Positions 1 to 61,596 of a DNA stretch of 64,000 nt are shown in pieces. The stretch lies in contig OX597814.1 in NCBI GenBank assembly GCA_951406725.2, positions 113,708,001 to 113,772,000 on the forward strand, in the 5' to 3' direction. Under the pieces are notes generated by a model that was given only the letters and a program-made list of their open reading frames with translations, was not told where the DNA came from and made no database searches. The position numbers and the translations under genes were made by a program. Position 1 is the stretch's first letter; every line of letters starts with the position of its first letter. Origin of the DNA: Octopus vulgaris. Taxonomy: Eukaryota.

Positions 1-422
1 GTTAAGCAATAGTTAATCTAGATCAGATACGAAATAGAGAGTGAAGTAGCGGAATGAAAATAGATGTGAGATATGCAGGGATATTGCATTTGTAGAGCCA
101 TTATTTAGGTAGAATGGTATACATATAAGATTCTAATACCTTGTGAGTAAATTCCAACGATATTTAAAAATTGGTCATTCTAAGTATAGAGTTTGTACAC
201 AGTGCAATAAAATAAATAAAACTCTTGATTCAATAGCACTGTGTACAAACTCAATACTTGGAATGACCAATTTTAAATACTACGCATCCTCTTCCGAGTA
301 AGTTTTATCTCTCTCTCTCTCTGTCTCTCTCTCTGATATATATATATATCTATATATATACATATATATATCTATATATGTATATATATATGTATATATA
401 TATATATGTGTAGGTATATATG

Positions 423-14606: not shown

Positions 14607-14902
14607 AAGATATCTGTCTAGACTTCGCAAATATATATATATATTTTCAGAGAAATGTATTCACTGATCACCAAAATCAGAAATATTGAATTTCTAAATA
14701 TCTCATAGAGATATGTACGGTGACAGTATACAACCACTCTATCGCCCCACCATCGTACATATCTCTATGAGATATTTAGAAATTTAATATTTCTGATATT
14801 TATTTATTTTATTTTATAAATGCAAAACAACACCACGGAGGAATTGACGTAAGCTTAAATAATAAACCGTGATAGGTGAACCGCGATATGGTGAGGTATT
14901 AC

Positions 14903-19233: not shown

Positions 19234-20273
19234 ACATCTATATTTACACGCATATATATGCGTTATTAACGTAAATGTGACCATATTTATGCTATTCCGA
19301 AATGACTTTTTCCGTCCATTTGAACATTGAGAGCTGTCAGTCTCACTAAATAACCAAATTGAAAACTCTTTGGCGAAGGAAAAGCATTAGTGCTCCAGCT
19401 GAAAACCCAATAACTCAGCTACTGGCGAAAAACAAGAACAAAAAGAACTGGCGATTGTTGTAAATACTAAGGAGGCTGCTGATTGCTCTGCCACGCCCCA
19501 GAAAGACTTCCATCTGACCTCAACCGTTAACAAAAGTTACTATCTGATACAGGAAGCAGAATCCGTTGAATTGTTGCCGTGTTAATACATATATGATGTC
19601 TAGAGGCATAAAGTATGTACGTTAAAATCATAAAACAATTGATATTTTTCTTTTTCTGTTTTATGCAGTTGATGGATGGTGTGGGTGTCTAGACTCATAG
19701 TAAATCTAACAAGCTTTATGATATCTTGGTTTTAATGCACTTATGGCTTTCCATACATAATTCACTCTTGAGGGGACTTGGATGCTCATCAATAATACGT
19801 CAAAGGGTTTTTCATCAAAGATTGATTATCTTCGGTTTCTGACATTCGGTTTGTTCCACTTGGTGTCACGAATTCTGTCGACCAGACTTCTTAAAAAAAC
19901 AAAAAAAAAAAAACCCAGTTTCTTTTAGTGTTGCTGTATTGATAATTTCTGTGTTTTTAACAAAATTTCCGTAATATTTAATAATAGGCGCAGGAGTGGC
20001 TGTGTGGTAAGTAGATTGCTTATCAACCACATGGTTCCAGGTTCAATGTCACTGCGTGGCATCTTGGGCAAGGGTCTTCTACTATAGCCTCGGGCCGACC
20101 AAAGCCTTGTGAGTGGATTTGGTAGACGGAAACTGAAAGAAGCCCGTCGTATATATGTATATATATATATATATAACGGGAAGCTTTATGAAGATAGACA
20201 AAAGACGAAGGCAGGTGGAAAACAAACAAACAATTGTATTAGTATGGCGCTCAGGAAATATAAATAAAACAAG

Positions 20274-20311
20274 TCTTTAACGTTTCGAGCCTACGCTCTT
20301 CAACAGAAAGA
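20274..20311 (-). ncRNA. Minimal hammerhead-like motif (variant core) in the 3' pseudo-LTR
   Basis: Minus strand: TCTTT-CTGTTGAA-GAGC(GTAG)GCTC-GAAAC-GTT-AAAGA. Stem I is 5 bp, stem II is 4 bp and stem III is the palindromic ACGT. The core departs from CUGANGA. Confidence 0.6.
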
Positions 20312-20553
20312 TACACAGAGAGAAAAAAAACACAGAAAGAAGGAGAGAAAAAAAATGCGACTCAACATGGCGATCTGATTTCGACCAGAGGTCAAAGATC
20401 AAACATGAGACGCGAGAACGAAATAAGGGGAGATAATAGGGTTGATAATAGGGTTGATAATAGGGTTGAATGACCAGCTATTAGTGCGTAGGAGGGGTCT
20501 GGACGTGTGTATGTATAGGGTTGGTGTATGTATTAGTATGTATTAGTATGTAT

Positions 20554-20588
<35 letters not shown>

Positions 20589-21170
20589 AGAGAGTATTAG
20601 TGCGTAGGATAGGTCTGGACGTGCGTATGTATGGGGTTGGTGTATGTATTAGTATGTATTAGTATGTATTAGTACGTATTAGTATGTGTGTGTGTGTGTG
20701 TGTGTGTATGAGAGAGTATAAGTGCGTATGAGGGGTCTGGACGTGTGTATGTATAGGGTTGGTGTATGTATTAGTATGTATTAGTATGTATTAGTACGTA
20801 TTAGTATGTATTAGTTGGTGTATGTATTAGTATGGCACATCATATATGATGTGATGTGTAAAGTCGTGTGGTGTAGTGAGGAGAAGAGGGGGAGAAGAGG
20901 GGGGAAGAACGGGGGGAAGAAGAGGGGGAGGAGAGGGGGAAGAGGAGATGAGGGGGAGAATGAAGGGGAGGAGGAGGGGGAGGAGTAGGGGGGAGGAAGG
21001 AGGAAAGAGGGAGAGGGGGAGAGATAAGGGGAGTGAGGGAGCAGAGGGAAGGGGAAGAGGGAAGGAGGGAGGGAGAAAGAGGGAAGAAGGGAAGGGGAGT
21101 AGGGGTGAAAGGATGAAGGACTGAAGAAGTAGGGGTCGGGGGGAGGATAGGTGAGGAGGGGGAGAGGGGG

Positions 21171-24081
21171 TTAGATGAGGAGGGGGGGAGAGTTGAGACC
21201 AAATGGCGTATAAGAGCGAAGAGAGAAGATTAATTCCTGTTCACGGCGCAAACGGGAATCCGGATGGCCTCTGTGTAAGGACAAACCGAACACAGATAGG
21301 TGTTGCAAGGAGTGGCCGGTGGAGCGGAAATGGCGTGAGACCGGTGTGTCGTTCGCAAGGTGGATGTCACGAAGGTGTTCCGCGAACCGGTCAGCCAAGC
21401 GGCGTCCCGTTTGTCCGATGTACAAGGAATTGCAGAGAGAGCAAGAGACGCAATAGATAATATTGCTGGAGGTGCAGGTGAAGGAGTGGATGATGGGATA
21501 GGGTCGATGGTGTGTGCTAGTGAGGCGGGTGGTGTTGGAGAGGTAAGGGCAAGTGCGGCAACGTGGGCGGGAGCAGGGGGAACGAGCCGGGTTGGGAGGT
21601 AGGGTCAGGGAAGGAGCTATGGACCAAAAGGTCTCGAAGGTTGTGGGCTCGTTTGAAAGAGGGGAGGGGTCGGTTAGGGAAGAGGTGTGAAGTGGACGGG
21701 TCGGACTGGAGATGACGGAAAGCTCGAAGAATGGTGCGTTGGAGACGTAGGGTCGTGGGGTGGTAAGTGAGGGGAAAAGGGAGGCGGGAGACTACAGGGC
21801 GGGTTCGGGGAGAGAGAGCAGATACACGGTCCACGGACCGTGCTCTGGCAAGGGCGGTGTGGATAGTGGTGAGGGGGTATCCACGTAGGGTGAAGTGGTG
21901 AGCCATACGTTGAGACTGAGTCTCAAAGTCATGGTCGTCACTACAGAGCCTACGTAGACGGAGGAATTGGGAATATGGGATGGAAAGCTTGGTGTGTTCT
22001 GGGTGGGAGGAAGAGAAGTTGAGGTATGAGGTATGAGTGTGAGTCTGTGTGTTTGTAGTGAATGGAGGTGGTAAGAGTGGAGTGAAGAATGCTAACCGAA
22101 ATGTCGAGGAAGGAGACAGAGGTGTTGGAGATAGTGGAAGTGAAGTGGAGGGCTGGATGGAAAGATTGGACGAAAGAGAGGAAGGAATCTAGATGTTCAC
22201 GGGAGAGTGAGGTGGCACCGATAATGTCGTCAATGTAACGACCATATAGTTTAGGAGTGGGACCAGTGAAATTAGAGAATATTTGGGCCTCAACATAGCC
22301 AACGAACAGGTTCGCATAGTTGGGGCCCATTCGCGTTCCCATGGCCACTCCCGAGATCTGATGGTAGAACTCGCCCGCGAACGAGAAGCAGTTCAGAGTA
22401 AGGACAAGTTCGGCCAGACGAATGAGTATGGAGGTGTCAGGTACAGGGTTAGAGCGGAGGTCAAGAAAGTGTCGAAGGGCCTGCAGTCCTTCGTGGTGAG
22501 GGATAACAGTATAGAGGCTTTGGATGTCCATAGTAAAAAGGATTTTGGAGGAGCCGGGAGGAAAGGAGAAAGAGTTGAAAAGCCGGAGAGCATGGTTGGT
22601 ATCGTGGATGTGGGAGGGAAGAGATGCCACTAGGGGGGAAGTACACGGTCGAGGTATTTAGAGATGAGCTCCGTGGGGCAGTTACAGGCGGAGACGATGG
22701 GGCGGCCAGGGTTGTTGGGTTTGTGGATTTTGGGGAGGAAGTAAATGGTGGGGGTACGTGGGGTTAGCACAATTAGGTTGGATGCGGTGCGGGGGAGACG
22801 GGAGGACGAGATGAGGTCGCGGACAGTAGAGGATACCGTCTGTTGGTAGCTACGTGTGGGGTTAGAGGGCAGAGGGGAATAGAAGGAGGTGTCATTGAGT
22901 TGGCGGAAAGCCTCGGCCCTATAGAGGTCCGCGCGCCACACCACTACAGCTCCACCCTTGTCAGCCGGTTTGATGATAATGTCAGCGCGCCGTTGGAGGG
23001 AACGAAGAGCCAAGAGCTCAGCCGGGGAGATGTTGAGGCGGCGTTGGCGCCTGGAGAAGTTGAACCGCTCCAATGCACGCTGACAAGCGCCCGCGAAAAG
23101 ATCCACTGCTAGGATCTGGCCAGGGGCAGGCGTCCACGGGGATGGTCGGCGGCCCAGGCCAGTGAAGCAGTCCTCTTCGTTGGGTGTGGGTGGCGAGTCG
23201 TGGTAATGCGCACCCAACCGGACACGGCGCACAAAGCTGTGGACATCAACTCGCGTCTGGAATTCCTTACAGGATGGAGTGAGGGGGATGAAACGCAGAC
23301 CCCTACCAAGGACGGAGCGTTCAGCCGCAGAGAGGGAAGATCGGGGGGAATGGTAACAACAGACGGAAGTGGAGAAGGGGTGGGTGGAATAGAAGTAGGA
23401 GGGGTGGTAGGTCTCGTGGAGGTCTTAGGGGGAGGGATTGGGGTGGTGTGTGGGGGGTGGTTGGGGGGCAGTAGGGTTAGGTGTAGGTGGATGGAGCCTA
23501 TCGGGAGGGGAGAAGGGGTTGTAGGGAGGGGCAGTGGGGTTAGGTGTGGGTGGATGGAGCCTATCGGGAGGGGAGAAGGGTGGTGGAGGAGTTGGGGTAG
23601 TGGCGTCGGGTAGGGTGGAATGGAAGAGTGATTGGAGTTTACGAAGTTTGGTATCAGAAAGAAATTGATGGAAGAGTTGATTCAAATGGATAATGAAGCG
23701 TAGCGTGTTTGGAGCATAGAGAGGCGGCAGAGAGGAGAAGAAGGTGGAGAAAGCAGGAGGAAGAAGGCGGTTGATGGCATGTAGTTTAGAGAGATTGGAG
23801 CGAATGGTGGCCCGCATAAGGCGGTAAGATGTGGTGCGGAGTATGGGTAAGATGGAAGAATCCGAGTGGAGAGCAGGGTGGAAGTGGAGGCGGAAACCTT
23901 TAGGGATGAGTCGGTGATGTAGGCAGCGGCTTAGGAAAGAGACATGGCTAGAGAAGCGGGTTTTTTTAAAAAGAAGTAGAGAGAGATTAACGGACGGCTG
24001 AAGGCAATATACAGGAAGTGAACGGAGATGATCCTTCAAACGATGATGGAGGGTGAGGAGGTAGGACCTAGGATCCGGCAT
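21171..24081 (-). pseudogene. PLE polyprotein (reverse transcriptase + Cys linker + GIY-YIG endonuclease), split by several frameshifts
   Basis: Motifs: N-terminal FLSRCLHHRLIPKGF; IIIKPADKGGAVVVW; IYFLPKIHKPNNPGRPIVS; FTMDIQSLYT; GVAMGTRMGPNYANLFVG; YGRYIDD; C-x4-C-x2-C near 21550-21580; IIYC...YIGQTGRRLADRFAEH...REQELIFSLRSYTPFGLN. Frameshifts fall at G runs and a 7-bp duplication (~22020-22035), so some may be sequencing errors. Confidence 0.92.
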
Positions 24082-24798
24082 GATGGGATAGCGGAAAAAA
24101 ACAAACGTTCGAAAAAACAAAAAACAAAAAATTATCGTATGAAAAAAATAGAAAAAAAAGGATAGCGAAAAAAGGGGAAAAAACAAACGTTCAAAAAAAC
24201 AAAAAAATAATAATCGTATGAAAAAACTAGATAAGTAAGCGATAGGGGCAGAAAAGACGGGGCAAACGGAAAAGGGAAAGAAAGAAGGGAAGCAGAGAGA
24301 GGGGGAGGCAAAAAAAAGGGGGGTGCAGGCAGAGGAAACAGAGTATGGACATCCAGAGAGGAAGAAAGACGGAAAGGAGAACAAAAATGCAGGAAAATGT
24401 GGAAAGCATGAAATGAATGTAAAAAAAGTGGTAATATATGAGAAAATAAAAATACAACAAACGGGACAGTTTATGCGAACAAGTTCAAGGTTGAAAGTTC
24501 AAGGTGAGAAATGTGTAGACGTCGTGGTATATTTTTTAAGGATTTCACATCAATGCAAAGTCACTTTGATCCGCGAAAGAGAGGTGCAGCCAATGGTAAG
24601 TATCCAAGAGGTAAAGAAAATCCAAGGTAGAGGTAAGTGTTGATAGTGGTATTGGTAGAATATAGGATGAAAGTGAGACCACGTGAGCGCATAATATATA
24701 ACGGGAAGCTTTATGAAAATAGACAAAAGACGAAGGCAGGTGGAAAACAAACAAACAATTGTATTAGTATGGCGCTCAGGAAATATAAATAAAACAAG

Positions 24799-24836
24799 TC
24801 TTTAACGTTTCGAGCCTACGCTCTTCAACAGAAAGA
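24799..24836 (-). ncRNA. Minimal hammerhead-like motif (variant core) in the 5' pseudo-LTR
   Basis: Identical copy of 20274-20311 in the second pseudo-LTR. Confidence 0.6.
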
Positions 24837-26455
24837 TACACAGAGAGAAAAAAAACACAGAAAGAAGGAGAGAAAAAAAATGCGTGCAGTAACTAACGAA
24901 TCAACATGGCGATCTGATTTCGGCCAGAGGTCAAAGATCAAACATGAGACGCGAGAGCGAAATAAGGGGAGATAATAGGGTTGATAATAGGGTTGAATGA
25001 CCAGCTATTAGTGCGTAGGAGGGGTCTGGACGTGTATATGTATAGGGTTGGTGTATGTATTAGTATGTATTAGTATGTATAAGGGTGTGTGTGTGTGTGT
25101 GTGTGTGTATGAGAGAGTATTAGTGCGTAGGATAGGTCTGGACGTGCGTATGTATGGGGTTGGTGTATGTATTAGTATGTATTAGTACGTATTAGTATGT
25201 GTGTGTGTGTGTGTGTATGAGAGAGTATAAGTGCGTATGAGGGGTCTGGACGTGTGTATGTATAGGGTTGGTGTATGTATTAGTATGTATTAGTATGTGT
25301 TAGTACGTATTAGTATGTATTAGTTGGTGTATGTATTAGTATGGCACATATATATATATATTATGTGTGTGTATGTGTTTATGTGTCTGTGTTTGTCCCC
25401 CTAGCATTGCTTGACAACCGATGTTGGTGTGTTTACGTCCCCATAACTTAGATGCTCGGCAAAAGAGACCGATAGAATAAGTACTGGGCTTACAAAGGAT
25501 AAATCACGGGGGCGATTTGCTCGACTAAAGGCGGTGCTTCAGCATGGCCGCAGTCAAATGACTGAAACAAGTAAAAGAGTAAAAGAGTAGACTAATATTC
25601 GTGTCTGTTATTTGCTCCGATTATGGCTGGTTCTGTCTGGAATTCTTTTTGGGTTATAATTCCTGTTTCTTTGTGTCTGTTGGAATCCTCGATTCCTAGA
25701 TATTTCTGTGTTGAGGAAGAAAGGCTTTTAGATTCTTTTAGTGGAGTTGCTATGGTGTCTAAATATCTTTTGTTATTTTGGCGTTTTTGGCGGATATAAA
25801 TTTGATATTTTGCTCCTTGTTTTACCGTTTGTGAATTATCTTCGTAGATTTTAAATTTCATCAGGAATTTCGTTTTACTTTCTGTAAGTTACAATCTTTG
25901 AACCTGGCAGGTACTGTCTTGAAAAAGAAGTGATTCTTCTAGTGGCGGTTGTCAAAATGTTCTAGAATGTTCTGGTATTATTTTTCGTGTCTTGACGATT
26001 ATGAAACAAACTGTGAAACATCAAAATATCAAAATATTTTGATAAATGTTTTACAGTTTTTGAGGAACGTTTCTTAGTTCTAACTTACTTCAGGAATGGA
26101 TCATCAGTTCATATCCCGGGATCACGTGATCGGCCAGACTATCCGATGTTGCTATACGACACTGGTCACAATACGCTTCCTATCGTTTTAGTATTCGATT
26201 GACACCACCCCACTGACTAGGTGAGCAGGCCAACATTACCCCCCACTGATCGGAAGGCTAGTCCGTCACAGGGTGACCCATTTACGGTCGAGTGGACTGG
26301 AGCAACGTGAAATGTAGTGCTTTGCTCAAGAACACAACGCGTCGCCCGGTCCAGGAATCGAAGCCACAGTCTCACGCACAACGCGCCTAACCACTAGGTC
26401 ATGCACCTTCACATCAATATAATATAGTATAGTATGGCTTCTTCTTCTTCTTCTT

Positions 26456-38709: not shown

Positions 38710-38714
<5 letters not shown>

Positions 38715-39360
38715 GTAGTAATGGTGACCTATTTGGCTGCTATTTCTAATATTTTCGGTATGTGGTTTTGAGCAACTTGTTGCAATTAACCCTTTATTAT
38801 AATTATATATAATCCTTACCGAATATGGTCATTTCCATATTTAGGTGAAATTTATTAATTTTATTAAATTAATTATGTTTCACCCTTTATGTGTATTAAA
38901 TACTATTACTCCCATACAATGAATCTGCAAAACTTTGTTTCGGTGGTACTGTTTTTGTAACTCACGTGGTAAAATTTTGGAGGGAGATACGAATTCGCCT
39001 GTCCATATAAATGTGGAGATGCTGGCAGACCGTTATATCGTTCGATGTCGCCTGGTCGAGTTGATGTAATGGGTAAGTTTTTTCCTAGCATTTCTAGATT
39101 TATAGGAAATATTATGTTGATAAGGAAATGAACTTTCGATTCTAATCCAGAAACGAATTCGTCCATAATTAATCCAAGTAGGCTGGGATTTCGTTATCTT
39201 CTTTCTCTTTACCATATACGGGTTACAAATTCTGTTTGTTTGTGGAAACTTATTTTTCTAGTAGTAGTAATGGTGACCTATTTGGCTGCTATTTCTAATA
39301 TTTTCGGTACGTGGTTTTGAGCAACTTGTTGCAATTAACCCTTTATCATAATTATATATA
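38710..39360 (+). mobile_element. Non-coding HHR-bearing element: 549-bp unit plus ~100-bp terminal redundancy, flanked by (TA)n
   Basis: 38710-38811 is repeated at 39259-39360 with 2 mismatches. HHR at 39111-39169. (TA)n on both sides. Confidence 0.72.
39111..39169 (+). ncRNA. Type I hammerhead ribozyme, variant core (UUGAUAA)
   Basis: ATTATG-TTGATAA-GGA...TCC-A-GAAAC(GAATTC)GTC-CATAAT. It has a 6-bp stem I, a palindromic loop 3 and a GUC site, and is homologous to the canonical motif at 45765-45826. Confidence 0.7.
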
Positions 39361-39368
39361 TATATATA

Positions 39369-39883
39369 GTAATACACAATCTTTTCATTCACACATTGAA
39401 TTTGGTGATACTAGTTGCGGATTCTAGCTCGCTCTGATACTGAGTTGAGTTGATGCCTTCTAGTATCTTAAAGTTCAATATATAATCATTTATGATTATA
39501 GTATTCTACGCTGAAGAGAAAAGAAGTTCTTGGTAAGATAGAATTATTTAATATTTAATTCTTATGCTTTCCTAAAAACTTGATTTCGAAACGTACGTCC
39601 GTAGATAACTTAAAATTGTATGATAGATTGCCGTCAATTCATTCTCTCTTACCTGTTTGTGTCTGCCTTCCAATTGCTGTTTTTACTGAGATCTCCTTTT
39701 TAGTAGAAGAAATAGCTATAACTCTTTGACTGCTATTTCTAAATTCGGTATGTGGTAAGGCAATTCGTTGCTAAACCCTTTATTGCTTAGTATTACTTAA
39801 ATTTTCCTCGAATGAGGCTTTTACATGCCGAAGACTACTTGGTGTAATTGATAATTATTCCAAATTAATTAATTTCACCCTTC

Positions 39884-39885
<2 letters not shown>
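39369..39885 (+). mobile_element. Non-coding HHR-bearing element (~515 bp) flanked by (TA)n
   Basis: HHR at 39505-39605, hairpin at 39708-39740 and TTCGGTATGTGGT at 39744-39756. Ends TTTCACCCTTCA then (TA)n. Confidence 0.7.
39505..39605 (+). ncRNA. Type I hammerhead ribozyme with canonical core and long (~70 nt) stem II
   Basis: TCTACG-CTGAAGA-GAAA...TTTC-GAAAC(GTAC)GTC-CGTAGA. Stem II continues via AAGTT/AACTT and AGAATTA/TAATTCT. Predicted cleavage is after C39599. Confidence 0.85.
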
Positions 39886-39940
<55 letters not shown>

Positions 39941-40024
39941 GTAGACATACATGTATACATATATACATCTACATTTATACATCTAGATGTATACATCTAC
40001 ATGTATACATCTACATGTATACAT

Positions 40025-40068
<44 letters not shown>

Positions 40069-40943
40069 ATATACATACAATAGAGAGATGGTTTTCTTTC
40101 ACTTTTAACACGTAATACTGAAATAGTGTAGAAGATGTGGTATTGCTGTGGGCTCGCCCTAGGCAAGAAGTTTTAAAAATTTTTTGCCCATGACACTCCT
40201 TGGACTCTAAGTAAGGCATGTGTAAAATTTGAATGAAATTGGTTGTGTAGTTCTCAAGTTTTAGGGATTCACACAGACACACATTCTCAGTTTTATAGAG
40301 AGAGATATATGTATACATATGTATCATATACATATGTATACATACATATATATACATATATATGTATATAATTTATAAATATATATGTATATATATAATG
40401 TATATGTATACATATATTATGTGTATATATATTATATATACATATATATGATATACATATACACACATATATATATATAAATATATACATATGTATTCAT
40501 ATATACATATACATATATTCACATGTATATACATATATACCTATACATATACATATACACAAACACATATATATACATACATGCATATACATAATATATG
40601 TATACATACATATATACGTATGTATACATATATACATATATATATGCATACATATATACATACGTATATACATGTATATATACATACATACATATATACA
40701 TATACATATATACCTACACGCACACACACATATATATATATACACATACATACGTATATAATATATATTCATTTACATACATATACATACATATATACAT
40801 ACATATATATACACATACATATATATACATATATATATACACATATATGTATACATACATGCACATATATATACATATACATGCATACATACACACACAC
40901 ATACACGCAAACATATATATATATATATGCATATCCACACAGC

Positions 40944-40991
<48 letters not shown>

Positions 40992-41380
40992 ATTGACCTT
41001 ACGTTTTATTTACACCTACAGTAACAGGTTGTGACTCGGACAAATAATGAACACACTTAAGCGCATAGACCCAAAGAAAACACACACACACACACAAACG
41101 AACAAACATGACGTTAGCTCCAATTTCTTGAAAGCTAATAATAAAAATCACTTAATGACTTTTACAGTTCCAACTTATATCTTCTGGGGCTGCGTAAATA
41201 CATTAATGGAATATATTTGTAACCTTATTTTGAGTCTGTTTTCCAAAGTTGATATTGGAAATTTTATGTGAATGTTATGAACCTTTAAAAATCAATAAAT
41301 AAAAGCGAAACCAACAACAATCTTTCAGTTTCCCACTCAAAGAAATCTCAAGAAAGCACTAAAAAAACAAAACATGAAAA

Positions 41381-41966
41381 CAAGAGCACTCAGAGAGCGC
41401 AAACCTTCGCTAGGGCAACACCAACGTCCTCTCAACCATTACCCAGAAATGCTTTATAAAATGAGAATATCTGAAATAAATTCGACTGCTCTCACAAGCG
41501 AGAATACGAAAAACGAAGCCGACTGCTCTCAAAAATTAAGTAAAATGCCGAAAAAATAATCCATAATCCTTGTCCGGTACCTAATTGATCCCAATGGTAG
41601 CTATGGAATTTAAAGGTGGCTGTAGAAAATTTAGCAACAGTAATAGATTGTTTATCCTTATCTAATACAAGTCAAAGTTAACAAATTCACCATTCAAAAT
41701 AGTTACAGTCTAAAGGGAGAAATTGAGAAAGGCTTGAAATTTAACGTAAGATCGTAATCATGTAAAGTAAATTATAACATATCCAGAATTCTTGTCTGGT
41801 ACCAGATCGATCCCAGAATCTAATCACTTTGTGCCAGTTACGAGGTCAAACAACCCTGAAAGTCTCATCCGAATCCATCCAGCGGTTCTTGAGATATCTT
41901 GTCCACGGACAAACAAACAAACACGACTAGACACAATACCCCCACCTTCGCACAGGCGGAGGTAAT
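41381..41966. mobile_element. Helentron/HINE-like non-autonomous element
   Basis: Left end CAAGAGCACTCAGAGAGCGCAAACCTTCGC; right end hairpin ACCTTCGC-ACAG-GCGGAGGT-AATAA; internal ACAAACAAAC repeat. Confidence 0.5.
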
Positions 41967-42155
41967 AAAACAAAATAACGCATCCCACATGGTTCTGTGT
42001 CTGAGGTGTAAGAACTTTGCTTTGCAACCGTATGGTCCCGGGTTCCGTCCCACGCTGCGCCAACTTGGGAACTTGAGAGAATGTCTTCTATTATGGCTGT
42101 GTGCCAAATCTGTGTCTGTAAGTGAATCTGCTCGACCGAACTGCGTGAGAATCCG

Positions 42156-42227
<72 letters not shown>

Positions 42228-42573
42228 TTGCAATTATGTTAAAAACTCTCGTATGTCCAAATTTGGCCAAATGCGTTTTTTCTTTTCAATATTTACTTTT
42301 GCTTGCAATAGCCGGTTCTTTTAGTCAAACTATCGTATCTCCAGTTGCTTCAGTTGCAAAGACATCAAAACTTGTCAAAGTGTAGAACAACAGTTTTGCT
42401 ATCGAATGGTGAATCTTTTTCGTTTTCTGAGAAAGCAACGTTTTGGACTTACGACACTTTTGCATAATAGCAACGATATATATATATAGTTCAAATTTAC
42501 AGAAAAGAAAAGACGAAGACAGGTGAGAGAACAACAAGCAGGCGACGCATATATGAACACACACACACACAAA

Positions 42574-42650
<77 letters not shown>

Positions 42651-43694
42651 CAATATATAAAGGTAAAATTCAAGGATCCAAGTGTAGGAAGTTTGTAAGC
42701 TTTAAACAGTCTGAGGCAGGTATAGAAAACAAAAACTGGACCGCGTGCAGTCAGGAAAAATAACAATTTGTTGGCGTCAGAGGTTGCACACTTGTTCCAC
42801 ATCGAAGTTACGAGGGAATTCGATGAGCTGAAAATGTCTGTATAGGTGACGGTTAACAACTAAAATTGCTATGAATGCGAATGAAAATCCAAATGGTTAA
42901 AATGGCCTAGTGGTTAGAGCAGTGGACTCGCGGTCGAGGGATCGCGGGTTCGACTCTCAGACCCGGTGATGTGTGTGTTTATGAGCGAAACACCTAAGCT
43001 CCACGCGGCTTCTCCATGGCGAACTTGTGCTGACACTTTCGCCATAACTTTCTCTCACTCTTTCCTCCAGCATCTAGCAGCTCACCTGCGACGGACCGGC
43101 GTCCCGTCCAGGTGGGGAGCCTATACGCCAGGGAAACCGAAAAACCGGCCCTTATGAGCCAGGTGTTGCTCGAGAAGGAACAAACAACAATAAATAACGG
43201 CTATAATCCAAGCTACATATGTTTCTTAGCTAGCTGATTCTCTGATGTATTAATTACTTAACAAGGGGGAATTAGCTATCCACTTCTCAGGTCGAAGATG
43301 CCTTAATTACATGAATGTTACATTGTCGTTTCGGGATCCCAAGTTGACTCATCGTAAATGTAATTTGGAATGAGCCGGTAAAAATGAATACCCCCCCCCA
43401 CACACAAATGTCTGAAAAAATTAAATGGTCAAGGAAAGGATGAGCTCAAATATTTGGGATAGGGAACCGTATGAAGTTGTTGGGAATAAAGAAAAGGAGA
43501 GGATGAAGAAAGGAGTGAGGTTGGGTTAGATGGTTGCTGACTTTAAGGGGAAAATGTTACAAAAATTAATGGGGCAACTTTGCTATGTCAGCAGTAACAA
43601 AACCCCACCTCGGTGCACTTATGGATGAGTATCTGAGTACCCCTCGTTAAAGTATAATAATTCTGCTTGTCATTACGTTGCTTAGCCCGTCGGT

Positions 43695-43720
43695 AACGCT
43701 TTCATGTGATTAGAGAAAAA

Positions 43721-43757
<37 letters not shown>

Positions 43758-43910
43758 AGTAGTGTCCATGGCGTGAGGTAGAGGGAATATAATTGTAACA
43801 CTTTTAAGTGATGAGCTGAAGGGAAAGAGAGGAGAAAGAAAAAGGAGAGAGAAAAAGAGGGTAAGGTGAAGAATGAGACAGAAAGAGGGAGAAGTAAAAG
43901 AAGGAGAGAG

Positions 43911-43945
<35 letters not shown>

Positions 43946-44125
43946 GTCCATGACGTGAGGTAGAGGGAATGTAATTGTAATGCTTTCAAGTGATTAGTTG
44001 AAAGGAAAGAGAAGAGAAAAAAGGAGAGAGAAAAAGAGGATAAGGCGACAAGTGAGACAGAAAGAGAGAGAAAGAAAAGATGGAGAGAGAAAAAGAGCGT
44101 CCATGACGTGTGGCAGGGGGAGCGT
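43695..44125. repeat. Purine-rich tandem repeat, ~155-180-bp unit, about 2.5 copies
   Basis: GTCCATGRCGTG recurs near 43764, 43946 and 44099 with shared GA-rich spacers. Confidence 0.7.
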
Positions 44126-45532
44126 AATATTTATTACATAGTTAAAACAGTTAGCTGGAGGTAGTGAGGATATAGAGGAGGAGAGTTAAAAACATAATTT
44201 TAGCAGAGGAGTGATGTTCTGACGCTGAGGTTAAAGAAAGGCAAAGAGAGGGGAGAGAGGGAGAGAGAATGGAGAAAGAGGGAGAGAGAGGATGGAGGGG
44301 GAGAGGGAGATGATTATGATGATGGTGGTAGTGGAGATGGTGGAGGTGGCGGTGTTGTGTGGATAGTGAAAAGTGTATTTTTTAAAACTGAACTAAGTTT
44401 TTTATATCACCGATCACTGTTAAGTGATCAAGCGTGTAAGTGAAATTCCGTGGTATATTCAGGCTTATTTACGTGGCAGATATATGTAATTTAACAACAG
44501 GTTGTATCATATGAATGGGATATGTTTTTTGTTTATGGGGGAAAATGGCAAAATATGTATGTATCTTATGAATGCTGTGTATTAAATCTATAAAATTGTG
44601 CATAAAGTATATAAAGTGCATTAAGTAATCATCGTATTCCAATTTCCTTCACTTTTCAAAGAATCGTAGATGAGCAATTATCTTTCAATACAGACACAAC
44701 ACAGGCTACGCTTTCAGGTTTTTAGATTAAGTTTTCAGAAATAACCCAATTGGTTTACCATTAATTCCGCGAAATATTCACGGGTCTCGCTATTTACTAA
44801 TTATTACATCAGAGGATCAGCTAAGTAGGAAACATATGTAGCACACACACACACACACATAAATGTGTGGTTATATAGACGTCGATTTAGAGAATTGTGT
44901 GGCTGTCATAGACTAATTATTTGTGTAACCATAATGTTCCGGTGATCTGATGAGCTAGCTTTCTTTATTTGCATTAATTCGTGAATATAAAATTATGTTG
45001 TATTATACTGAGCATACATATTCTTATAAAGATGTACGCATTATTTCTTCCCTGCTGAAATTAATACTATGTGAAAAGGTTGCGAAACAGCTGTAACCCA
45101 ATGGGAGTCATGTGGTTAAATAAATATATATTCACCTAGCTAACCTCCTGCCTTTTATGCTTTTACACACACACACACACACACACATCTTATTTAATCG
45201 TGTATAAGTTGCACAATTTTCTACTTATTTTGAACTGAAAAAAACTGGGGTGCGGCATACACGCGAGTGCCATTTATACATAATTAAAATCAATATATCT
45301 TTTATCTTTTACTTATTTCAGTCTTTCGTATGCGGCCATGCTGGGGCACAGTCTTGAAGAATTTTTAGTCCAACGAATCGACCCCAGGACTTATTCTTTG
45401 TAAGCCTAGTACTTATTCTATCGGCCTCTTTTACCGAACCGCTAAGTTACGAGGACGTAAACGCACCAGCATCGGTTGCCAAGCGATATTGGGGGGACAA
45501 ACGCAAACACATACATACATATAGACACACAC

Positions 45533-45579
<47 letters not shown>

Positions 45580-45585
<6 letters not shown>

Positions 45586-45960
45586 AAAAATATGGTAAAG
45601 TAAAAGAATTCACTTTACCACACACCGAACTTTTCAGAAATAGCAGCCAAAAATTTGGCTATTTCTTCAACTGCAAATAAAAGTCTCCAGACAATGCATG
45701 CTCAGAAAAATAACCCACATAGGTATAAGGGAAAAACAATGAAATACCACATCCATATACGATACCCGAGGACAGTCTGTTTCTGGATTTGTGGGTAAAA
45801 CGCCACTTTTCCTTCATCAGCTCAGAGATTTCTTCTGATTTAGATTTGAAAATACTAAGAATCAAACATACCCGTCCGATATCTGTAACATCGGACAAAC
45901 CATGCCAGACACCCAGTACTAGCGAATCCAAAAATACGAATGAGATCTATTATTCTCCCT
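45580..45960 (-). mobile_element. Non-coding HHR-bearing element related to 38710-39360
   Basis: HHR at 45765-45826, hairpin at 45636-45666 and TTCGGTGTGTGGT (minus) at 45617-45629, then (TA)n. The other end is cut by the CR1 tandem array. Confidence 0.7.
45765..45826 (-). ncRNA. Type I hammerhead ribozyme with canonical core
   Basis: Minus strand: TCTGAG-CTGATGA-A-GGA-aaa-GTGG(cgttttac)CCAC-aaa-TCC-A-GAAAC(AGACT)GTC-CTCGGG. Stem I is 6 bp including G-U pairs. Confidence 0.85.
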
Positions 45961-46811
45961 GTGGGCCATAGTGCCCAAATTCTGACTTGAAAGACTTCAC
46001 CAGGTGGTGCTATTAAGTTAGACATGGCCTGGGCCAATAATGGCCGAAACCTATCAAAGTAGGTTCAACACACGAACTCATATAAAGAATCTTGCAAACA
46101 CACGAACTCATATAAAGAATCTTGCAAACCAAATCCAAAAACGAAATACAATTTTGTTGCTTTCAAATTTGGCATATGGATTAAGTTTTGTATACTGATT
46201 ATGAAAATGAAATTAATTTTTCTATAAATCCATAGTTAAAAAGTTATTAGCCTTTAAAATTTGCATAATTTGGGTATTTTAGCCAATAAGAAGCGAGTAT
46301 TTTACACATCACCGTGGCGAAAAACTCTGTTTCCACAGTAACGAAAGATGCTGCACATGCACACAAGAAGGAGAAGGAGATACGACAAAGATAATCTTCT
46401 ACTATAATAATATTCTTGTGTATTTCTCCGTCACAACATATGAATGAGTAAGGAAGGGGTGATAGATGAATAAGGAACAAAGAGGTGATGGCAAACTGGG
46501 AGTGGGAGCGTTTCAACTCTGTGAATATGTGTGTGTTTGTAAAAGAGATGTGTGTGTGTGTGTGTGTGCAATGGCACGGGGCCAGCTAGTTTATTGTATA
46601 AAATATTTGAGTATATAGCAAACTTTCGTTCTTGAATTTTTTAAACTAAAGTCTGTTTTAAACAATGTTTTGTTTGTTATTTCTAGCAAGTCTTGTTGGT
46701 TTGTTTGTTCGTAGCTTTTAAACATTCAATTTGCTCGCGAATGTTTTCATATTAACTTCATTCGTGTATATGTTAACGTTTTTACTGTTATTTCTAGCAA
46801 ATATTATACAT

Positions 46812-47635
46812 CTTTGGAAAAGAGGATGCCCTGAAACTCCCATACTCCCTTCCTTCAGGTGAAACTCTCGCGGCGTCCAACAACATCAGAGACTTGGGAG
46901 TAATTGTGGACAACAACATAAGCTGGGCCACTCATATAAACACCAAAGTTGACATGGCCCGCAGAATGTGTTCCTGGATTCTCAGAACTTTCCAGTCGAG
47001 AGATATCCACACCATTATCCTTCTCTTCTCCACTTTTGCCCGACCCCACCTTGAATACTGTTGTCCACTGTGGTCTCCCCACACAATACAAGGTATCATA
47101 AAAGTTGAAGCACCTCAAAGGGCAATCACAAAAAAGATAGATGGCATGACAGGCCTCGACTATTGGGGTCGACTAGAAAAGCTAAAACTCTATTCTCTCC
47201 AACGTCGTCGTGAGCGCTACATCATCTGCATGATGTGGAAAATATTCCATCAGCATTGCCCAAATGATGTTGGCATCACCTTCAAGGTACATCCAAGGCT
47301 TGGGCCCCGTGCCATCCGCCCAAAACAAAAATCGCACTCTCATCTCATAACAACAATACGGCACAATTATTTCACCTCAATTGGTCCCGCTCTCTTTAAC
47401 ATTACACCAAAACACATTAAAACAGAAACTGACCCTATAGGGTTCAAGAAGTCTTTGGACAGATTCCTTCAAGAAATCCCGGATAAACCCCCTACACCCG
47501 GATATGTCTCTGTAAACAATAACTCTCTACTTGAGTGGGCCATAGTGCCCAAATTCTGACTTGAAAGACTTCACCAGGTGGTGCTATTAAGTTAGACATG
47601 GCCTGGGCCAATAATGGCCGAAACCTATCAAAGTA
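46812..47635 (+). mobile_element. CR1-clade LINE 3' fragment, copy 1 (ORF piece 46894-47559)
   Basis: RDLGVIVD; RPHLEYCCPLWSPH; QRAITKKIDGMTGLDYWGRLEKLKLYSLQRRRER. Ends in ATCAAAGT. Confidence 0.9.
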
Positions 47636-48385
47636 GGTTCAACACACGAACTCATATAAAGAATCTTGCAAACACACGAACTCATATAAAGAATCTTGCA
47701 AACCAAATCCAAAAACGAAATACAATTTTGTTGCTTTCAAATTTGGCATATGGATTAAGTTTTGTATACTGATTATGAAAATGAAATTAATTTTTCTATA
47801 AATCCATAGTTAAAAAGTTATTAGCCTTTAAAATTTGCATAATTTGGGTATTTTAGCCAATAAGAAGCGAGTATTTTACACATCACCGTGGCGAAAAACT
47901 CTGTTTCCACAGTAACGAAAGATGCTGCACATGCACACAAGAAGGAGAAGGAGATACGACAAAGATAATCTTCTACTATAATAATATTCTTGTGTATTTC
48001 TCCGTCACAACATATGAATGAGTAAGGAAGGGGTGATAGATGAATAAGGAACAAAGAGGTGATGGCAAACTGGGAGTGGGAGCGTTTCAACTCTGTGAAT
48101 ATGTGTGTGTTTGTAAAAGAGATGTGTGTGTGTGTGTGTGTGCAATGGCACGGGGCCAGCTAGTTTATTGTATAAAATATTTGAGTATATAGCAAACTTT
48201 CGTTCTTGAATTTTTTAAACTAAAGTCTGTTTTAAACAATGTTTTGTTTGTTATTTCTAGCAAGTCTTGTTGGTTTGTTTGTTCGTAGCTTTTAAACATT
48301 CAATTTGCTCGCGAATGTTTTCATATTAACTTCATTCGTGTATATGTTAACGTTTTTACTGTTATTTCTAGCAAATATTATACAT

Positions 48386-49207
48386 CTTTGGAAAAGAGGA
48401 TGCCCTGAAACTCCCATACTCCCTTCCTTCAGGTGAAACTCTCGCGGCGTCCAACAACATCAGAGACTTGGGAGTAATTGTGGACAACAACATAAGCTGG
48501 GCCACTCATATAAACACCAAAGTTGACATGGCCCGCAGAATGTGTTCCTGGATTCTCAGAACTTTCCAGTCGAGAGATATCCACACCATTATCCTTCTCT
48601 TCTCCACTTTTGCCCGACCCCACCTTGAATACTGTTGTCCACTGTGGTCTCCCCACACAATACAAGGTATCATAAAAGTTGAAGCACCTCAAAGGGCAAT
48701 CACAAAAAAGATAGATGGCATGACAGGCCTCGACTATTGGGGTCGACTAGAAAAGCTAAAACTCTATTCTCTCCAACGTCGTCGTGAGCGCTACATCATC
48801 TGCATGATGTGGAAAATATTCCATCAGCATTGCCCAAATGATGTTGGCATCACCTTCAAGGTACATCCAAGGCTTGGGCCCCGTGCCATCCGCCCAAAAC
48901 AAAAATCGCACTCTCATCTCATAACAACAATACGGCACAATTATTTCACCTCAATTGGTCCCGCTCTCTTTAACATTACACCAAAACACATTAAAACAGA
49001 AACTGACCCTATAGGGTTCAAGAAGTCTTTGGACAGATTCCTTCAAGAAATCCCGGATAAACCCCCTACACCCGGATATGTCTCTGTAAACAATAACTCT
49101 CTACTTGAGTGGGCCATAGTGCCCAAATTCTGACTTGAAAGACTTCACCAGGTGGTGCTATTAAGTTAGACATGGCCTGGGCCAATAATGGCCGAAACCT
49201 ATCAAAG

Positions 49208-49209
<2 letters not shown>
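48386..49209 (+). mobile_element. CR1-clade LINE 3' fragment, copy 2
   Basis: Same translation as copy 1 at an offset of 1574 bp; followed by (TA)n. Confidence 0.9.
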
Positions 49210-49284
<75 letters not shown>

Positions 49285-49288
<4 letters not shown>

Positions 49289-49546
49289 TTGGGAGAGTCA
49301 TTTTCTTTTTGTGCCGTATAATGTAACACAGTCATCGGTAAAATTTCCACTTATTTCATATTTTTATTTTTCTAAAATTTTCGTTGCGTCTTGCAAACTT
49401 TTTAATAATCTTGACTCAAGACTATTGAAAAGGTTGCAAGATGCAACAAAAATTTTAGGAAAATAAAAATAAGAAACAAGTGGAAATTTTACCTGTGACT
49501 GTGTTAAATTATAAGGCACAAAGAGAAAATGACTCCCCACAGACAC
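49285..49546. repeat. Fold-back (MITE-like) palindrome with ~125-bp arms
   Basis: GAGTCATTTTC...TCTTGCAA mirrored by TTGCAAGA...GAAAATGACTC around a short centre at ~49410-49422. Confidence 0.8.
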
Positions 49547-50089
49547 AAGAGAACAAAATGGTAAAAACTGGCGAAAACCACGAAGACCCTAGACACACAA
49601 ATACATACACACATATATACGACGGGCTTCTTTCAGTTTCCGTCTACCAAATCCAAGTGTCTTCTACTAGGATCAGCCCGAGTATATAGTAGAAGACACT
49701 TGTCCAAGGTGCCAAACAGTGGGACTAGACCCGGAACGATGTGCTGGAGAAGTAAGCTGCTTACCACACAGCCACACTTATAACTTCTAAAGGTTTTGTC
49801 GATTTGCTGAGCAATAAACTAATAGAAAAACCCTCGATATTAACATATAGAATCAGCTCGAAATTTTGATCTCACAAAGCTCCAGGAACTTCGTAAAAAG
49901 TTGAGTAAACGCCAAGAGGAATAAAGGCTGCCGGGGAAGCAATATATTACAAGAGAACAATCTTCCCAAAACATGTTTCTACTTTTTAATTAAATTATGT
50001 CGTGCTTGTATTTTATAGGTGGCGCTCACTGTGATCTTTGAAACATACACCGGAATATAATGGGTGGTCTCCGATTTACAACCACCATG

Positions 50090-50173
<84 letters not shown>

Positions 50174-50232
50174 GTTTGTTTGTATGGATATATATATATA
50201 CACATATATATATATATATACATATATATATA

Positions 50233-50277
<45 letters not shown>

Positions 50278-50310
50278 ATATATATATACATATATATATA
50301 TATAAGTATA

Positions 50311-50351
<41 letters not shown>

Positions 50352-50354
<3 letters not shown>

Positions 50355-51212
50355 TTTGATACTTTGATAGGTTTCGGCCATTATTGGCCCAGGCCATGTC
50401 TAACTTAATAGCACCACCTGGTGAAGTCTTTCAAGTCAGAATTTGGGCACTATGGCCCACTCAAGTAGAGAGTTATTGTTTACAGAGACATATCCGGGTG
50501 TAGGGGGTTTATCCGGGATTTCTTGAAGGAATCTGTCCAAAGACTTCTTGAACCCTATAGGGTCAGTTTCTGTTTTAATGTGTTTTGGTGTAATGTTAAA
50601 GAGAGCGGGGCCAATTGAGGTGAAATAATTGTGCCGTATTGTTGTTATGAGATGAGAGTGCGATTTTTGTTTTGGGCGGATGGCACGGGGCCCAAGCCTT
50701 GGATGTACCTTAAAGGTGATGCCAACATCATTTGGGCAATGCTGATGGAATATTTTCCACATCATGCAGATGATGTAGCGCTCACGACGACGTTGGAGAG
50801 AATAGAGTTTTAACTTTTCTAGTCGACCCCAATAGTCGAGGCCTGTCATGCCATCTATCTTTTTTGTGATTGCCCTTTGAGGTGCTTCGACTTTTTTGAT
50901 ACCTTGTATTGTGTGGGGAGACCACAGTGGACAACAGTATTCAAGGTGGGGTCGGGCAAAAGTGGAGAAGAGAAGGATAATGGTGTGGATATCTCTCGAC
51001 TGGAAAGTTCTGAGAATCCAGGAACACATTCTGCGGGCCATGTCAACTTTGGTGTTTATATGAGTGGCCCAGCTTACGTTGTTGTCCACAATTACTCCCA
51101 AGTCTCTGATGTTGTTGGACGCCGCGAGAGTTTCACCTGAAGGAAGGGAGTATGGGAGTTTCAGGGCATCCTCTTTTCCAAAGTGGATTAGCTCAAATTT
51201 ATCCTCGTTCAG
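50352..51212 (-). mobile_element. CR1-clade LINE 3' fragment, copy 3 (inverted)
   Basis: The 221-aa piece differs from copies 1 and 2 at two residues. Tail (ATCAAAGT)2. (TA)n on both sides. Confidence 0.9.
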
Positions 51213-51213
51213 G

Positions 51214-51245
<32 letters not shown>

Positions 51246-57222: not shown

Positions 57223-58256
57223 AAGGGAAAAATTAGTAACGAATGGGAAAAGTGGAGGACAGAAGAAAGAAAACGAGAAAAAATAAGGAAAGACGGTGAT
57301 TGAGTATTTGAGTGAACGAGGGAGAGAGAGAGAGAGAGAGAGAAAGAGGGGAGAGAGAGAGTGAGAGAGAGAGAAGGGAGAGAGAGACAGCAGGAGTTTC
57401 TTAGCAACATTAAAGATCCATCTTTGTGTAAAGGAAAGCTGGAAGGCATTTCATATATATCTATTGAGAGCAAACTACAGAATAAAGAGATTGGTACCAG
57501 GTCCCTTGAACCGTGGTGACCTCGAGTAACTGACTGCCCAGTGTGATGTTCATGTTTGGAAAGAGAGAGAGAGAGAGAGAGGAAGAGAGAGAGAAGTGGT
57601 GGGAGTGAGAGAAATAGTGAAAGAGAAACAGAGAGAGGGCGAGAGAGAAAGTGGTAGGAAGGAAAGAAATAGAAAGAGAGAGAGGAAAGAAAAGAGGGAA
57701 CAAATAGAAGAATAGAAGGTAAAATGAGAGTGAGAAAGACGGTATATATACGGTTCTGGGTTCAGTCCCACTGCGTGGCACCTGGGGCAAGAGTCTTCAA
57801 CTATAGCCTAGGGCCCACCAAAGCCTTGTGAGTGGATTTGGTAGACGGAAGCTGAAAGAAACCCATCGTGTATATATATATTTATATATATATATCTGTT
57901 TGTGTCAGTGTTTTTACCCCCAACATCGATGGTGTGTTTACGTAACTTAGCGATTCAGCAAAAGAGTACGACAGAATAAGTACTAGGCTTACTGAGAATA
58001 AATCCTGGGGTCGATCTGTTCGACGAAAGGCAGTGCTCCAGCATGGCTGCAGTCAAATGACTGAAACAAATAAAAGAATAAAAGAATAGCGGCCGAGAAT
58101 GCTAGAAATAAGAGTCAGAGCAATAACTGTGCGTTACTGTAGCTATGAGTTGTTTTAACTCTTATTTCTAGCAATAATGATGCTAAATAGCGCCCTCAGT
58201 CGCTTTAGAGACATATATATTTTTGCCTTTCGGTTGAAAAATTGCTAACAAACCAC

Positions 58257-58316
<60 letters not shown>

Positions 58317-58794: not shown

Positions 58795-59360
58795 TATTAA
58801 TATTGAAAGAAAGAATACGAAGAAAGATGGATGTATGAATAATTTATTTGTATGAGATATATTAATACATTTCAACATCTTTATAAGTTGCAAAGCTCCA
58901 AAAGAAATGGGAGATGCGAAAAAATCTACATATATGTTTCGGTTCTAGCTCGTGGTTGATATGTAATTCTAAGCATTTGGTTATATGCTTCTTCGGGTTT
59001 TTTTTATCAGCTTATAGAACGAAGGTTAACATATTTCATGAAAGGATGCATGCAAAATCCTTTCAAGAAATATGTTAACCTTTGTGCTATAAGCTGATAA
59101 AAACCCTGAAGATGTTCTACTCCATATACTTAAAAATGATACTATTCTTAGCATATAACCAAATACTTAGAATTACATATCAGCTAGGGGCTAGAACCAA
59201 AACTTATATGTAGGTATTTTTCCAATCTCCCATTTCTTCTTTGAGCTTTACAACTTATAAAGATGCTGAAATTTATTAAAAATAACAATACAAATAAATT
59301 ATATCATACAAATCAATTATTCATACATCCAGCTTTCTCCATTTTCAATCTTTCAATATA
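58795..59360. repeat. Long diverged palindrome carrying decayed hammerhead motifs
   Basis: Centre near 59050 (CATATTTCATGAAAGGAT...ATCCTTTCAAGAAATATG); arms align out to ATATTGAAAGA / TCTTTCAATAT. Confidence 0.8.
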
Positions 59361-60313: not shown

Positions 60314-60975
60314 CTAGTGGAGCGCAGCCTTGTAAACCGCATTCCTTGTTACTCCGTCTGGAGCGTAGTAGAAAAGGTTTGTCGAACAGCCAACCCTCGG
60401 ACAGCCCACATACAGTTGTCCGTGCGAAAAGCAAGGAGTGCTGAGGTCCAACCCCACGACTTTCAATGACTGCCCCTGTGCTTTGTTGATGGTCATCGCG
60501 AAGTTTAGGCGAATAGGGAATTGAACGCGTTTCATCGGGTAAACACAGTCCGACGGAATCAATGGCATGCGGGAAATAAAAACATCCCCTGCCCCTTAAC
60601 CCGTGATAACTTTTGCCTCTAGAACGTCATCCAAAAGTTGGGTGACAATCAACCGAGTGCCATTGCAAAGTAGTGAAGGTTCCAAGTTTCGGAGAAGAAT
60701 GGGACTTCGAACCTTGAGGCAGAGTTTATGGGGTGGCAGACCCGGTGGTTCTTGTGAGTTAAGAAATTCGGTCGGGTATACCATGACTTGCTCTGGGTCA
60801 GTAATTGAATCGATAGATGTGTAGATTCGTTCCTGGGTCGGCAGTTGACGGAGGCGAGTGTTAAGCGTATTGACGTTGGCATTGGTTGGCGCTAAAATGG
60901 CTCTATCACACAACCATTGATGGTCACCGAAATTAGAAGATAGATCGTGGTAAACTGTCTGACAAAGTTTAGAAA
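60314..60975 (-). pseudogene. Helitron PIF1-like helicase C-terminal fragment
   Basis: WLCDRAILAPTN; YPTEFLNS..PPGLPPHKL; LLRNL...LCNGTRL; RVQFPIRLNFAMTINKAQGQSL; FSHGQLYVG. Confidence 0.92.
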
Positions 60976-61596
60976 ATGCAAATATTACACGATTAAGAAG
61001 CAAGCAAATAGTCTTTTGTTTCTAAAATTGAAGTATTTTGACTACGTTCACCTTGAAATAAAGCTCAATCAATCTTGATTGAATACAATAATGGTTTTCT
61101 TTCACTAAAAAACACACTTCTTTTGGTTTGTCCATTCATAATAAATGAAAACAATAAGTTCGACTGTAGAGTAACTTCTTCAAGGAATATATCCATGCAG
61201 GGACACCGGAGAACATCCACGCAGAATGCATCGCCTCAGACTGTAAAGGGAGGTAACTAAATTGAGTTTGGCAAACAGTAGTTTAAAAATAAAAACAAAG
61301 AAAAATGATCGACTGTGTATGAAATATGCATGCTTGGTGTTAAGGGAGGCAACTTCTATCAGCACCATATAGTCGATTGTGCAACCAAAGAAAAACGATT
61401 TCCCACGGCTTTATCGATCGCATTCTCACCTGGAATCGATATTTGAAATTTTTTCAAGACTTATACATGCCCTGATACCGTCGGTATCTACATATCAAAT
61501 TTGAGCGCAATCGGATGGAGGATGCCCGAGATCTGAGAAGACACACACACACACACACACACGCGCACACACACAGAGAACGGATTTTATATAATA

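Follow-up and report, generated by a model that had tools for sequence, protein, structure and literature searches.

Introduction

The closest described relatives of the repeats reported here are the animal non-LTR (long terminal repeat) retrozymes (PMC7229834), which are tandem non-coding units with one type I hammerhead each, occur in thousands of dispersed copies, have highly self-paired predicted folds, lack LTRs, a PBS (primer-binding site) and a PPT (polypurine tract), and for which Penelope-like elements (PLEs) have been proposed as helpers. Our repeats were found in a 64,000-nt stretch of Octopus vulgaris DNA (assembly GCA_951406725.2, contig OX597814.1, positions 113,708,001 to 113,772,000), hereafter the window, and agree with that description in each of these respects; they are animal non-LTR retrozymes, an already known class. 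Their units are longer (538-594 nt across families as compared to ~170-400 nt), and they are known from genomic sequence whereas circles were shown for the earlier ones. Octopus and other cephalopods are not mentioned in that report, and its results and discussion contain nothing on fixed ends, a tail or a fold common to several families.

A recent preprint treats retrozymes as non-autonomous derivatives of PLEs (Li, Clavereau and Pollet 2026, bioRxiv 10.64898/2026.07.22.740005); it concerns the same class and proposes the same helper, and its units of 51-972 bp span those described here. Both the retrozyme class and its link to PLEs are already published in these two reports. The evidence in the text of the preprint is co-occurrence and homology to PLE pseudo-LTRs (pLTRs), mostly in vertebrates and in no mollusc, whereas no pLTR homology to the repeats was seen in the octopus PLEs that we sampled, and it is from the insertion ends that we draw the link. 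How these retrozymes end is the new part.

Canonical endonuclease-bearing PLEs (Poseidon PAc, PMC11167929; Neptune clade) provide the second comparison. The PLE protein is reported to start reverse transcription at two internal RNA sites, the stretch between them becoming a genomic tail that is given as unique to PLEs (PMC11167929), and PLEs with an inverted arm have been described with a 30-40 bp tail at one end only (bioRxiv 10.1101/2021.04.23.441226). The octopus families resemble them in an apparent pair of internal starts downstream of the hammerhead cut, a tail at one end, an inverted 5' arm, partial tandems and A/T-rich or (TA)n targets, and differ from them in having no coding frame, a full-size hammerhead and a strongly folded start region. 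The junction RNA here resembles the target in being rich in TA; PAc, by contrast, is described in that report as starting where the RNA has no homology to the cut DNA. Plant LTR retrozymes are likewise non-autonomous and hammerhead-bearing, with a similar size range; the type III hammerheads, LTRs, PBS/PPT and 4-bp target duplications by which they are characterized were not seen here, target duplications being unreadable inside (TA)n.

Here we describe at least seven related families of non-coding tandem repeats with a hammerhead motif that end at two fixed sites, and we consider it likely (at a probability of about 0.8) that they are non-autonomous passengers copied into (TA)n by a PLE enzyme. 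Arguments over which enzyme moves animal retrozymes have so far drawn on co-occurrence and partial homology; in the octopus families, one after another, a PLE-specific two-site pattern appears in the very ends of the insertions. A literature search, outside which lay subscription journals, Repbase, Dfam and preprint supplements, returned no description of these families or of two-site retrozyme ends.

Results

Three families, A, B and C, are represented in the window (Table 1), with units of 558, 594 and 562 nt, respectively, that occur as single copies or head-to-tail arrays. The 2.8-Gb assembly (227 contigs), to which all genome-wide counts refer, contains 1,879 candidates for family A, 1,911 for B and 977 for C; among the 40 candidates scored for each, identities were 83-95% for A, 97-99% for the best copies of B and 98-99% for C. 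Four further families with the same layout (E, G, H and I), traced from public contigs with loose ends, from flanking sequence and with a pattern built to exclude A-C, bring the total to seven, and the 234 full units fall into seven clusters, 53-76% identical (52% being the level of the shuffled control for this comparison), with the hammerhead motif in the same place in each. As the original prediction had it, the linkers diverge while the layout is kept: those of A, B, E and G are 45-54% identical against a shuffled mean of 49% and maximum of 55%, so that their middle regions stand at chance identity, and those of C, H and I are related. The shared motif, which was expected after the hairpin and is found there as TTCGGTRTGTGGT, has in extended form 13,174 exact matches genome-wide (two disjoint patterns, 7,265 + 5,909; a count of units, not insertions) and 0 in reversed controls; a metagenome scan for it gave 0 matches.

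The units are non-coding, with no PLE protein match inside and a longest noted stop-free frame of 171 aa (family C). Judged by reading the sequence, they contain no LTR, PBS or PPT, and no poly(A) or 3' simple-repeat tail was found within the unit. The prediction of retrozyme-like, non-coding, (TA)n-targeted repeats with a shared RNA architecture is upheld, as several families in place of one. It had named as a possible refutation that the repeats might prove to be plain pLTR stumps of coding PLEs; units occur in full as tandems, however, and not one of those examined was placed as a pLTR would be. A truncated stump of this kind was rejected, since each unit has another unit, an inverted arm or flank upstream of it. 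PLE fragments close by in the fetched loci L125, L199, L202, L274 and L401 were viewed and are separate insertions, and those in L068, L087, L113, L254 and L294 are taken as separate by position.

Two side observations bear on the extent of the group. Shared-core variants at L199:3380-3800 and L202:3308-3660 and in contig loose ends match none of the seven clusters closely, and the superfamily is probably larger. Sequence words of family B (L008:539-1726) occur in runs under three organism labels, and family B is for that reason probably common to close species.

The insertion ends carry the main result. We number unit positions from the predicted hammerhead cut, and consider 128 distinct A/B/C insertions that are complete, having dropped loci truncated by the fetched stretch. 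Among their 195 3' ends, 169 fall at +186..210 or +280..308, two windows that cover about a tenth of the unit and whose sites lie nominally at ~+195 (site 1) and ~+290 (site 2), and TA runs adjoin 170. Inverted insertions make up 67/128, and in 45 of these the two arms end one at site 1 and the other at site 2; site 1 was used twice in one and site 2 twice in none, with at least one end elsewhere in the remaining 21. The same pairing of sites recurs in the other families (G, 9/12; H, 4/4; I, 4/4; E, 4/8). Site 1 lies inside an A/U-rich loop closed by the predicted helix P2 and site 2 just past helix P5; in family G, where P5 is longer, site 2 is shifted to +312..319. Many other A/T-rich stretches within the units are not used as ends. 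The 5' ends are variable, 36/61 adjoining TA and 4/61 lying no more than 3 nt from the predicted cut (P ~0.007 if uniform, weaker given selection). Fixed ends, inverted arms and partial tandems, the PLE-type signature, are all present in these families, which also have a (TA)n target preference in common with the resident PLEs. Since the two-site ends match the PLE tail signature, and a young resident PLE also has two ends (see below), we infer mobilisation by PLEs, and the earlier proposal of copying by a (TA)n-targeting PLE gains support in this general form.

A predicted fold accompanies the two sites. In families A-C the shared motif at +139 to +146 pairs with a partner at +220 to +226, and the next hairpin ends at about +270; the paired-arm pattern has 1,333 genome matches as compared to 2 in the control. 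Monomers fold better than shuffles (z of -5.5 for A, -6.1 for B and -7.0 for C), with the helices P1, P2 and P5 formed, and when folded as circles 7/8 monomers gave z of -4.7 to -10.5 with a cruder shuffle. In an alignment of 11 sequences 89% of cells pair, as compared to 40-54% for slid partners (P3 and P4, out of register in the alignment, were left out of the pair counts). P2 position 3 reads G-C in 207 copies, A-U in 13, G-U in 5 and A-C in 5, and one P5 position shows G-C, C-G, A-U and G-U. RNAalifold recovered P1 and P2 from the alignment and missed P5, with a covariation term of only -0.1. Stem covariation among copies, proposed at the outset as a check, is thus visible as compensatory pairs in P2, P5 and the hammerhead stem I of family A and is modest overall; the fold is predicted to be conserved across families with modest covariation support. 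Sequence conservation is concentrated around the two ends, the remainder of the unit being at chance identity. The latter part of the shared architecture and the two-site ends, both absent from the original prediction, stand out as most informative.

A type I hammerhead motif is present once per unit in all seven family representatives; its core is canonical in all but A, namely B, C, E, G, H and I, and of the U3/A8 type in A. Regional Rfam scans gave no hammerhead at E<=10 in either region, and whole-window Rfam output was swamped by microsatellite matches; the assignment is therefore based on stem pairing and a descriptor. With the latter, a scan of the window on both strands found only two exact-core type I hammerhead motifs, 39511-39599 (+) and 45820-45771 (-). 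The claim that three elements of the window each carry such a hammerhead consequently holds to the letter for B and C, the core of the first element being TTGATAA, not CTGANGA. Among 31 family A copies the core reads TTGA-N-AA in 27 and is canonical in none, and stem I shows a compensatory swap (13 G-C, 18 A-U, 2 other). Natural U3/A8 hammerhead variants are known, and we read the family A core as a swap of the 3-8 pair, judging from the sequence; that pair has been documented through a different rescue (PMC11167929). Family C has a canonical core in 41/41 contexts, and 15/74 B-type copies have a CCGATGA core. An A.A at the base of stem II recurs in C, G, H and I, and a GUU triplet in G, H and I.

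The resident PLEs were sampled with two single proteins and one Pfam family as queries, taking the best-scoring candidates of each search. The PLE of the window (Table 1) has an RT (reverse transcriptase) match and a 108-122 bp minisatellite in its pLTR, and we read it as Neptune-like from a cysteine motif in its linker. Its family is abundant (19,819 candidates), other genome copies having open frames of up to 1,119 aa, and ends ~102 nt after its minimal hammerhead. A young PLE family (L191:3061-5691; L207) has a 5.8-kb unit with an 876-aa stop-free frame and a TA/TG microsatellite-like 3' region of ~1.2 kb, with two ends ~43 nt apart, into (TA)n. In two PLEs the matching regions show no excess of folding over shuffles (z of +0.6 and -0.8).

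Discussion

Under the reading that we favour, a unit or array would be transcribed and its hammerhead would cut the transcript into monomers, which would probably be ligated to circles. A Neptune-type PLE protein might then nick (TA)n and bind the conserved P1-P2-P5 domain, whereupon reverse transcription would start within the RNA, with site 1 used for one end of the DNA and site 2 for the other, and copying around the circle or along a multimer would give rise to partial tandem arrays.

Several observations weigh against this reading. The loci used for the ends were chosen by similarity or motif, not at random. The tail is ~100 nt (~120 in family G) as compared to the 30-40 bp reported for PLEs (bioRxiv 10.1101/2021.04.23.441226) and the 43 nt of the young resident family. 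Cleavage is reported not to be required for insertion in vitro (PMC11167929), and family A spread despite its non-canonical core. A decayed E copy gives a monomer whose folding does not exceed that of shuffles (z of -1.2), and both sides have changed in only 3/22 pairs of the alignment, which 108/500 shuffles reach. Finally, the shared motif and fold are absent at the ends of the window PLE family (30 loci), from the young PLE family and its relatives, and from 30 GIY-YIG loci and 20 longer stretches; octopus Naiad consensus sequences lack the shared motif in a text search that is blind to line-split matches; two of the octopus sequences were also read by eye at their ends, and a third in its 3' part. 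The suggestion of the window PLE as copying partner is accordingly not supported, its end lacking motif and fold like every other sampled PLE end.

Alternatively, the template might be a linear multi-unit transcript, not a circle, with the same PLE-type priming and a hammerhead that is secondary or partly dispensable. We regard this as a serious minority possibility. For instance, 3/28 5' ends of family B are found at +1 to +3, which would fit run-off from a cleaved linear end (P ~0.004 if ends were uniform, 0.075 at threefold density there). The missing canonical core in all 31 family A copies and the in vitro cleavage of only 1/9 frog dimers (bioRxiv 10.64898/2026.07.22.740005) point the same way, whereas the retention of the hammerhead motif in all seven families, the compensatory swap in family A stem I and the circles formed by coral, mussel and axolotl retrozymes (PMC7229834) do not. 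Units of family B differ by 2.3 substitutions within an insertion as compared to 9.1 between insertions, inverted arms included (49 units from 16 fetched loci, one counted twice as L010 and L255). This low divergence is what a single monomer copied again and again would leave, or a homogeneous array; private variants common to the units of one insertion speak for the former and against a linear template, and a homogeneous source array would produce them likewise. Contigs from public runs, none of them on record as RNA and their RNA origin a guess, cover parts of B and C, with ends, strand and level unreadable from them. One contig of 594 nt (run X1) contains a C unit in full and extends for another ~30 nt across the cut; a circle, a tandem transcript and tandem DNA are all compatible with it. 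A unit plus a short overlap is the form of contig that an assembler gives for a closed loop.

The families might also be internally deleted pLTR derivatives of an unsampled or extinct PLE, the fold being the binding site of its protein, and this proposal, too, we would place short of even odds without dismissing it. In frogs, 24/57 retrozyme families match known elements (PLEs making up 21 of the 22 matched; bioRxiv 10.64898/2026.07.22.740005), and the octopus genome contains many PLE families of which our sampling took the best-scoring candidates. No sampled PLE end has the shared motif, however, all 234 motif-bearing full units in the seven clusters are non-coding repeats, and with B and C copies 97-99% identical a live partner should be abundant.

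The absence of a parent among the PLEs sampled invites a bolder version of the passenger reading, which we offer tentatively and think rather doubtful: a long-lived lineage of circular RNA parasites, free of a parent, that has evolved a folded landing pad of its own for Penelope RTs, kept across at least seven families. P1-P2-P5 would then fix both start sites without copying PLE sequence, while the remaining RNA diverged, and the families would, if this is true, amount to a natural chart of the RNA structure behind two-site internal priming. It is improbable, in our view, that the fold is instead kept for a role other than retrotransposition (host protein binding, RNA stability or RNA-to-RNA copying) and overlaps the priming sites by chance; its absence from the sampled PLE ends, whose matching regions show no excess folding, would suit such a role, whereas conservation is centred on the two ends and site 2 moves with P5. 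Satellite-like repeats spread at the DNA level or by a long interspersed element (LINE), with breakage or priming at A/T-rich spots as the cause of the fixed ends, are very unlikely, for even though both sites lie in TA-containing sequence beside (TA)n, which blurs the junction, many 5' ends likewise adjoin TA and LINE fragments are frequent in the window, the other A/T-rich stretches are unused, the sites alternate between inverted arms, site 2 tracks the end of P5 and the unit has neither poly(A) nor a 3' simple-repeat tail.

These families offer natural fold variants around both sites, one with a longer hairpin and a moved site, and short RNAs would therefore allow a direct test of how PLEs choose their start site. 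Equally available for assay are the hammerhead variants that recur among them (U3/A8 core, A.A at the stem II base and GUU triplet).

Features of the window

Microsatellites and retroelement fragments abound in the window. The three copies of families A-C, taken at first for whole elements, are fragments of longer units; all three 3' ends do adjoin (TA)n as predicted, and the hairpin expected ~100 nt past the cut begins 103-109 nt after it. The B insertion sits within the TA run that terminates the A copy, which has lost most of the P2 3' arm near 38838. Site 1 of the B copy lies at about 39794 in the A/U-rich loop that P2 encloses together with the small hairpins P3 and P4, and the C hammerhead has an A.A mismatch at the base of stem II. 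TTCGGTRTGTGGT is exact at 38754, 39744 and 45617 and has 1 mismatch at 39303; at 2 mismatches the window holds 7 matches against 2.8 expected by chance, which is weak by itself.

Table 1. Coordinates of retrozyme and PLE features in the window
Feature	Position	Strand	Remarks
Family A insertion	38710-39360	+	starts at unit +95, spans a whole unit (549 nt in this copy), ends at site 1 (+195) in (TA)n
Family A hammerhead motif	39111-39169	+	non-canonical core TTGATAA; predicted cut after 39163
Family A helix P1 (hairpin)	38717-38747; second copy 39266-39296	+	
Family A shared motif TTCGGTRTGTGGT	38754-38766; second copy 39303-39315	+	P2 5' arm
Family A helix P5	38844-38884	+	site 2 directly after P5
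CTCACGTGG box, family A copy	38961-38969	+	conserved unit position; candidate promoter element
Family B insertion	39374-39888	+	starts at +369, crosses cut site, ends at site 2 (+290) in (TA)n
Family B type I hammerhead motif	39505-39605	+	CTGAAGA core, long stem II; predicted cut after 39599
Family B helix P1	39708-39740	+	
Family B helix P2	39744-39831; arms 39744-39756 and 39823-39831	+	encloses P3, P4 and site 1 loop
Family B helix P5	39841-39879	+	then site 2 and (TA)n
Family C insertion	45578-45962	-	starts at +371, crosses cut site, ends at site 1 (+193) in (TA)n
Family C type I hammerhead motif	45766-45825	-	CTGATGA core; predicted cut between 45771 and 45770
Family C helix P1 and shared motif	45617-45666 (P1 45636-45666; motif 45617-45629)	-	
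Window PLE	20176-25343	-	both pLTRs; minimal hammerheads near 24803 and 20278; frame broken by stops/shifts
Family D	58096-58259; L122:1491-1968; L125:1175-1661	+ (window)	~325-nt tandem repeat, type I hammerhead motif

The CTCACGTGG box also occurs at 24679-24687, just after the pLTR end of the window PLE, and may be a shared promoter box. A lone pLTR end of a relative of that PLE, with a minimal hammerhead and ending in (TA)n, lies at 8193-8310 (+). At 14345-14650 (-), ~300 nt between TA runs include a hammerhead-like motif (14545-14579) with core CCGATGA and a GUC triplet.

The sequence at 58090-58260, described previously as a 3'-only relative of these elements, belongs to a separate ~325-nt family, D, that has its own hammerhead motif and lacks the shared motif; its supposed shared hairpin arises where a direct piece meets a copy of itself in inverted orientation. 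Copies are 83-89% identical to that of the window, often with inverted arms, and to judge by these features family D is a second retrozyme-like lineage. A long imperfect inverted repeat at 58880-59300 is possibly a miniature inverted-repeat transposable element or an inverted retroelement insertion, and a 141-aa frame at 60596-61021 (-) resembles a Pif1/Helitron helicase fragment. A LINE-like 3' fragment is present at 45961-51245 in two tandem copies (period ~1,574 nt) and a third inverted; the family C copy adjoins the first of them.

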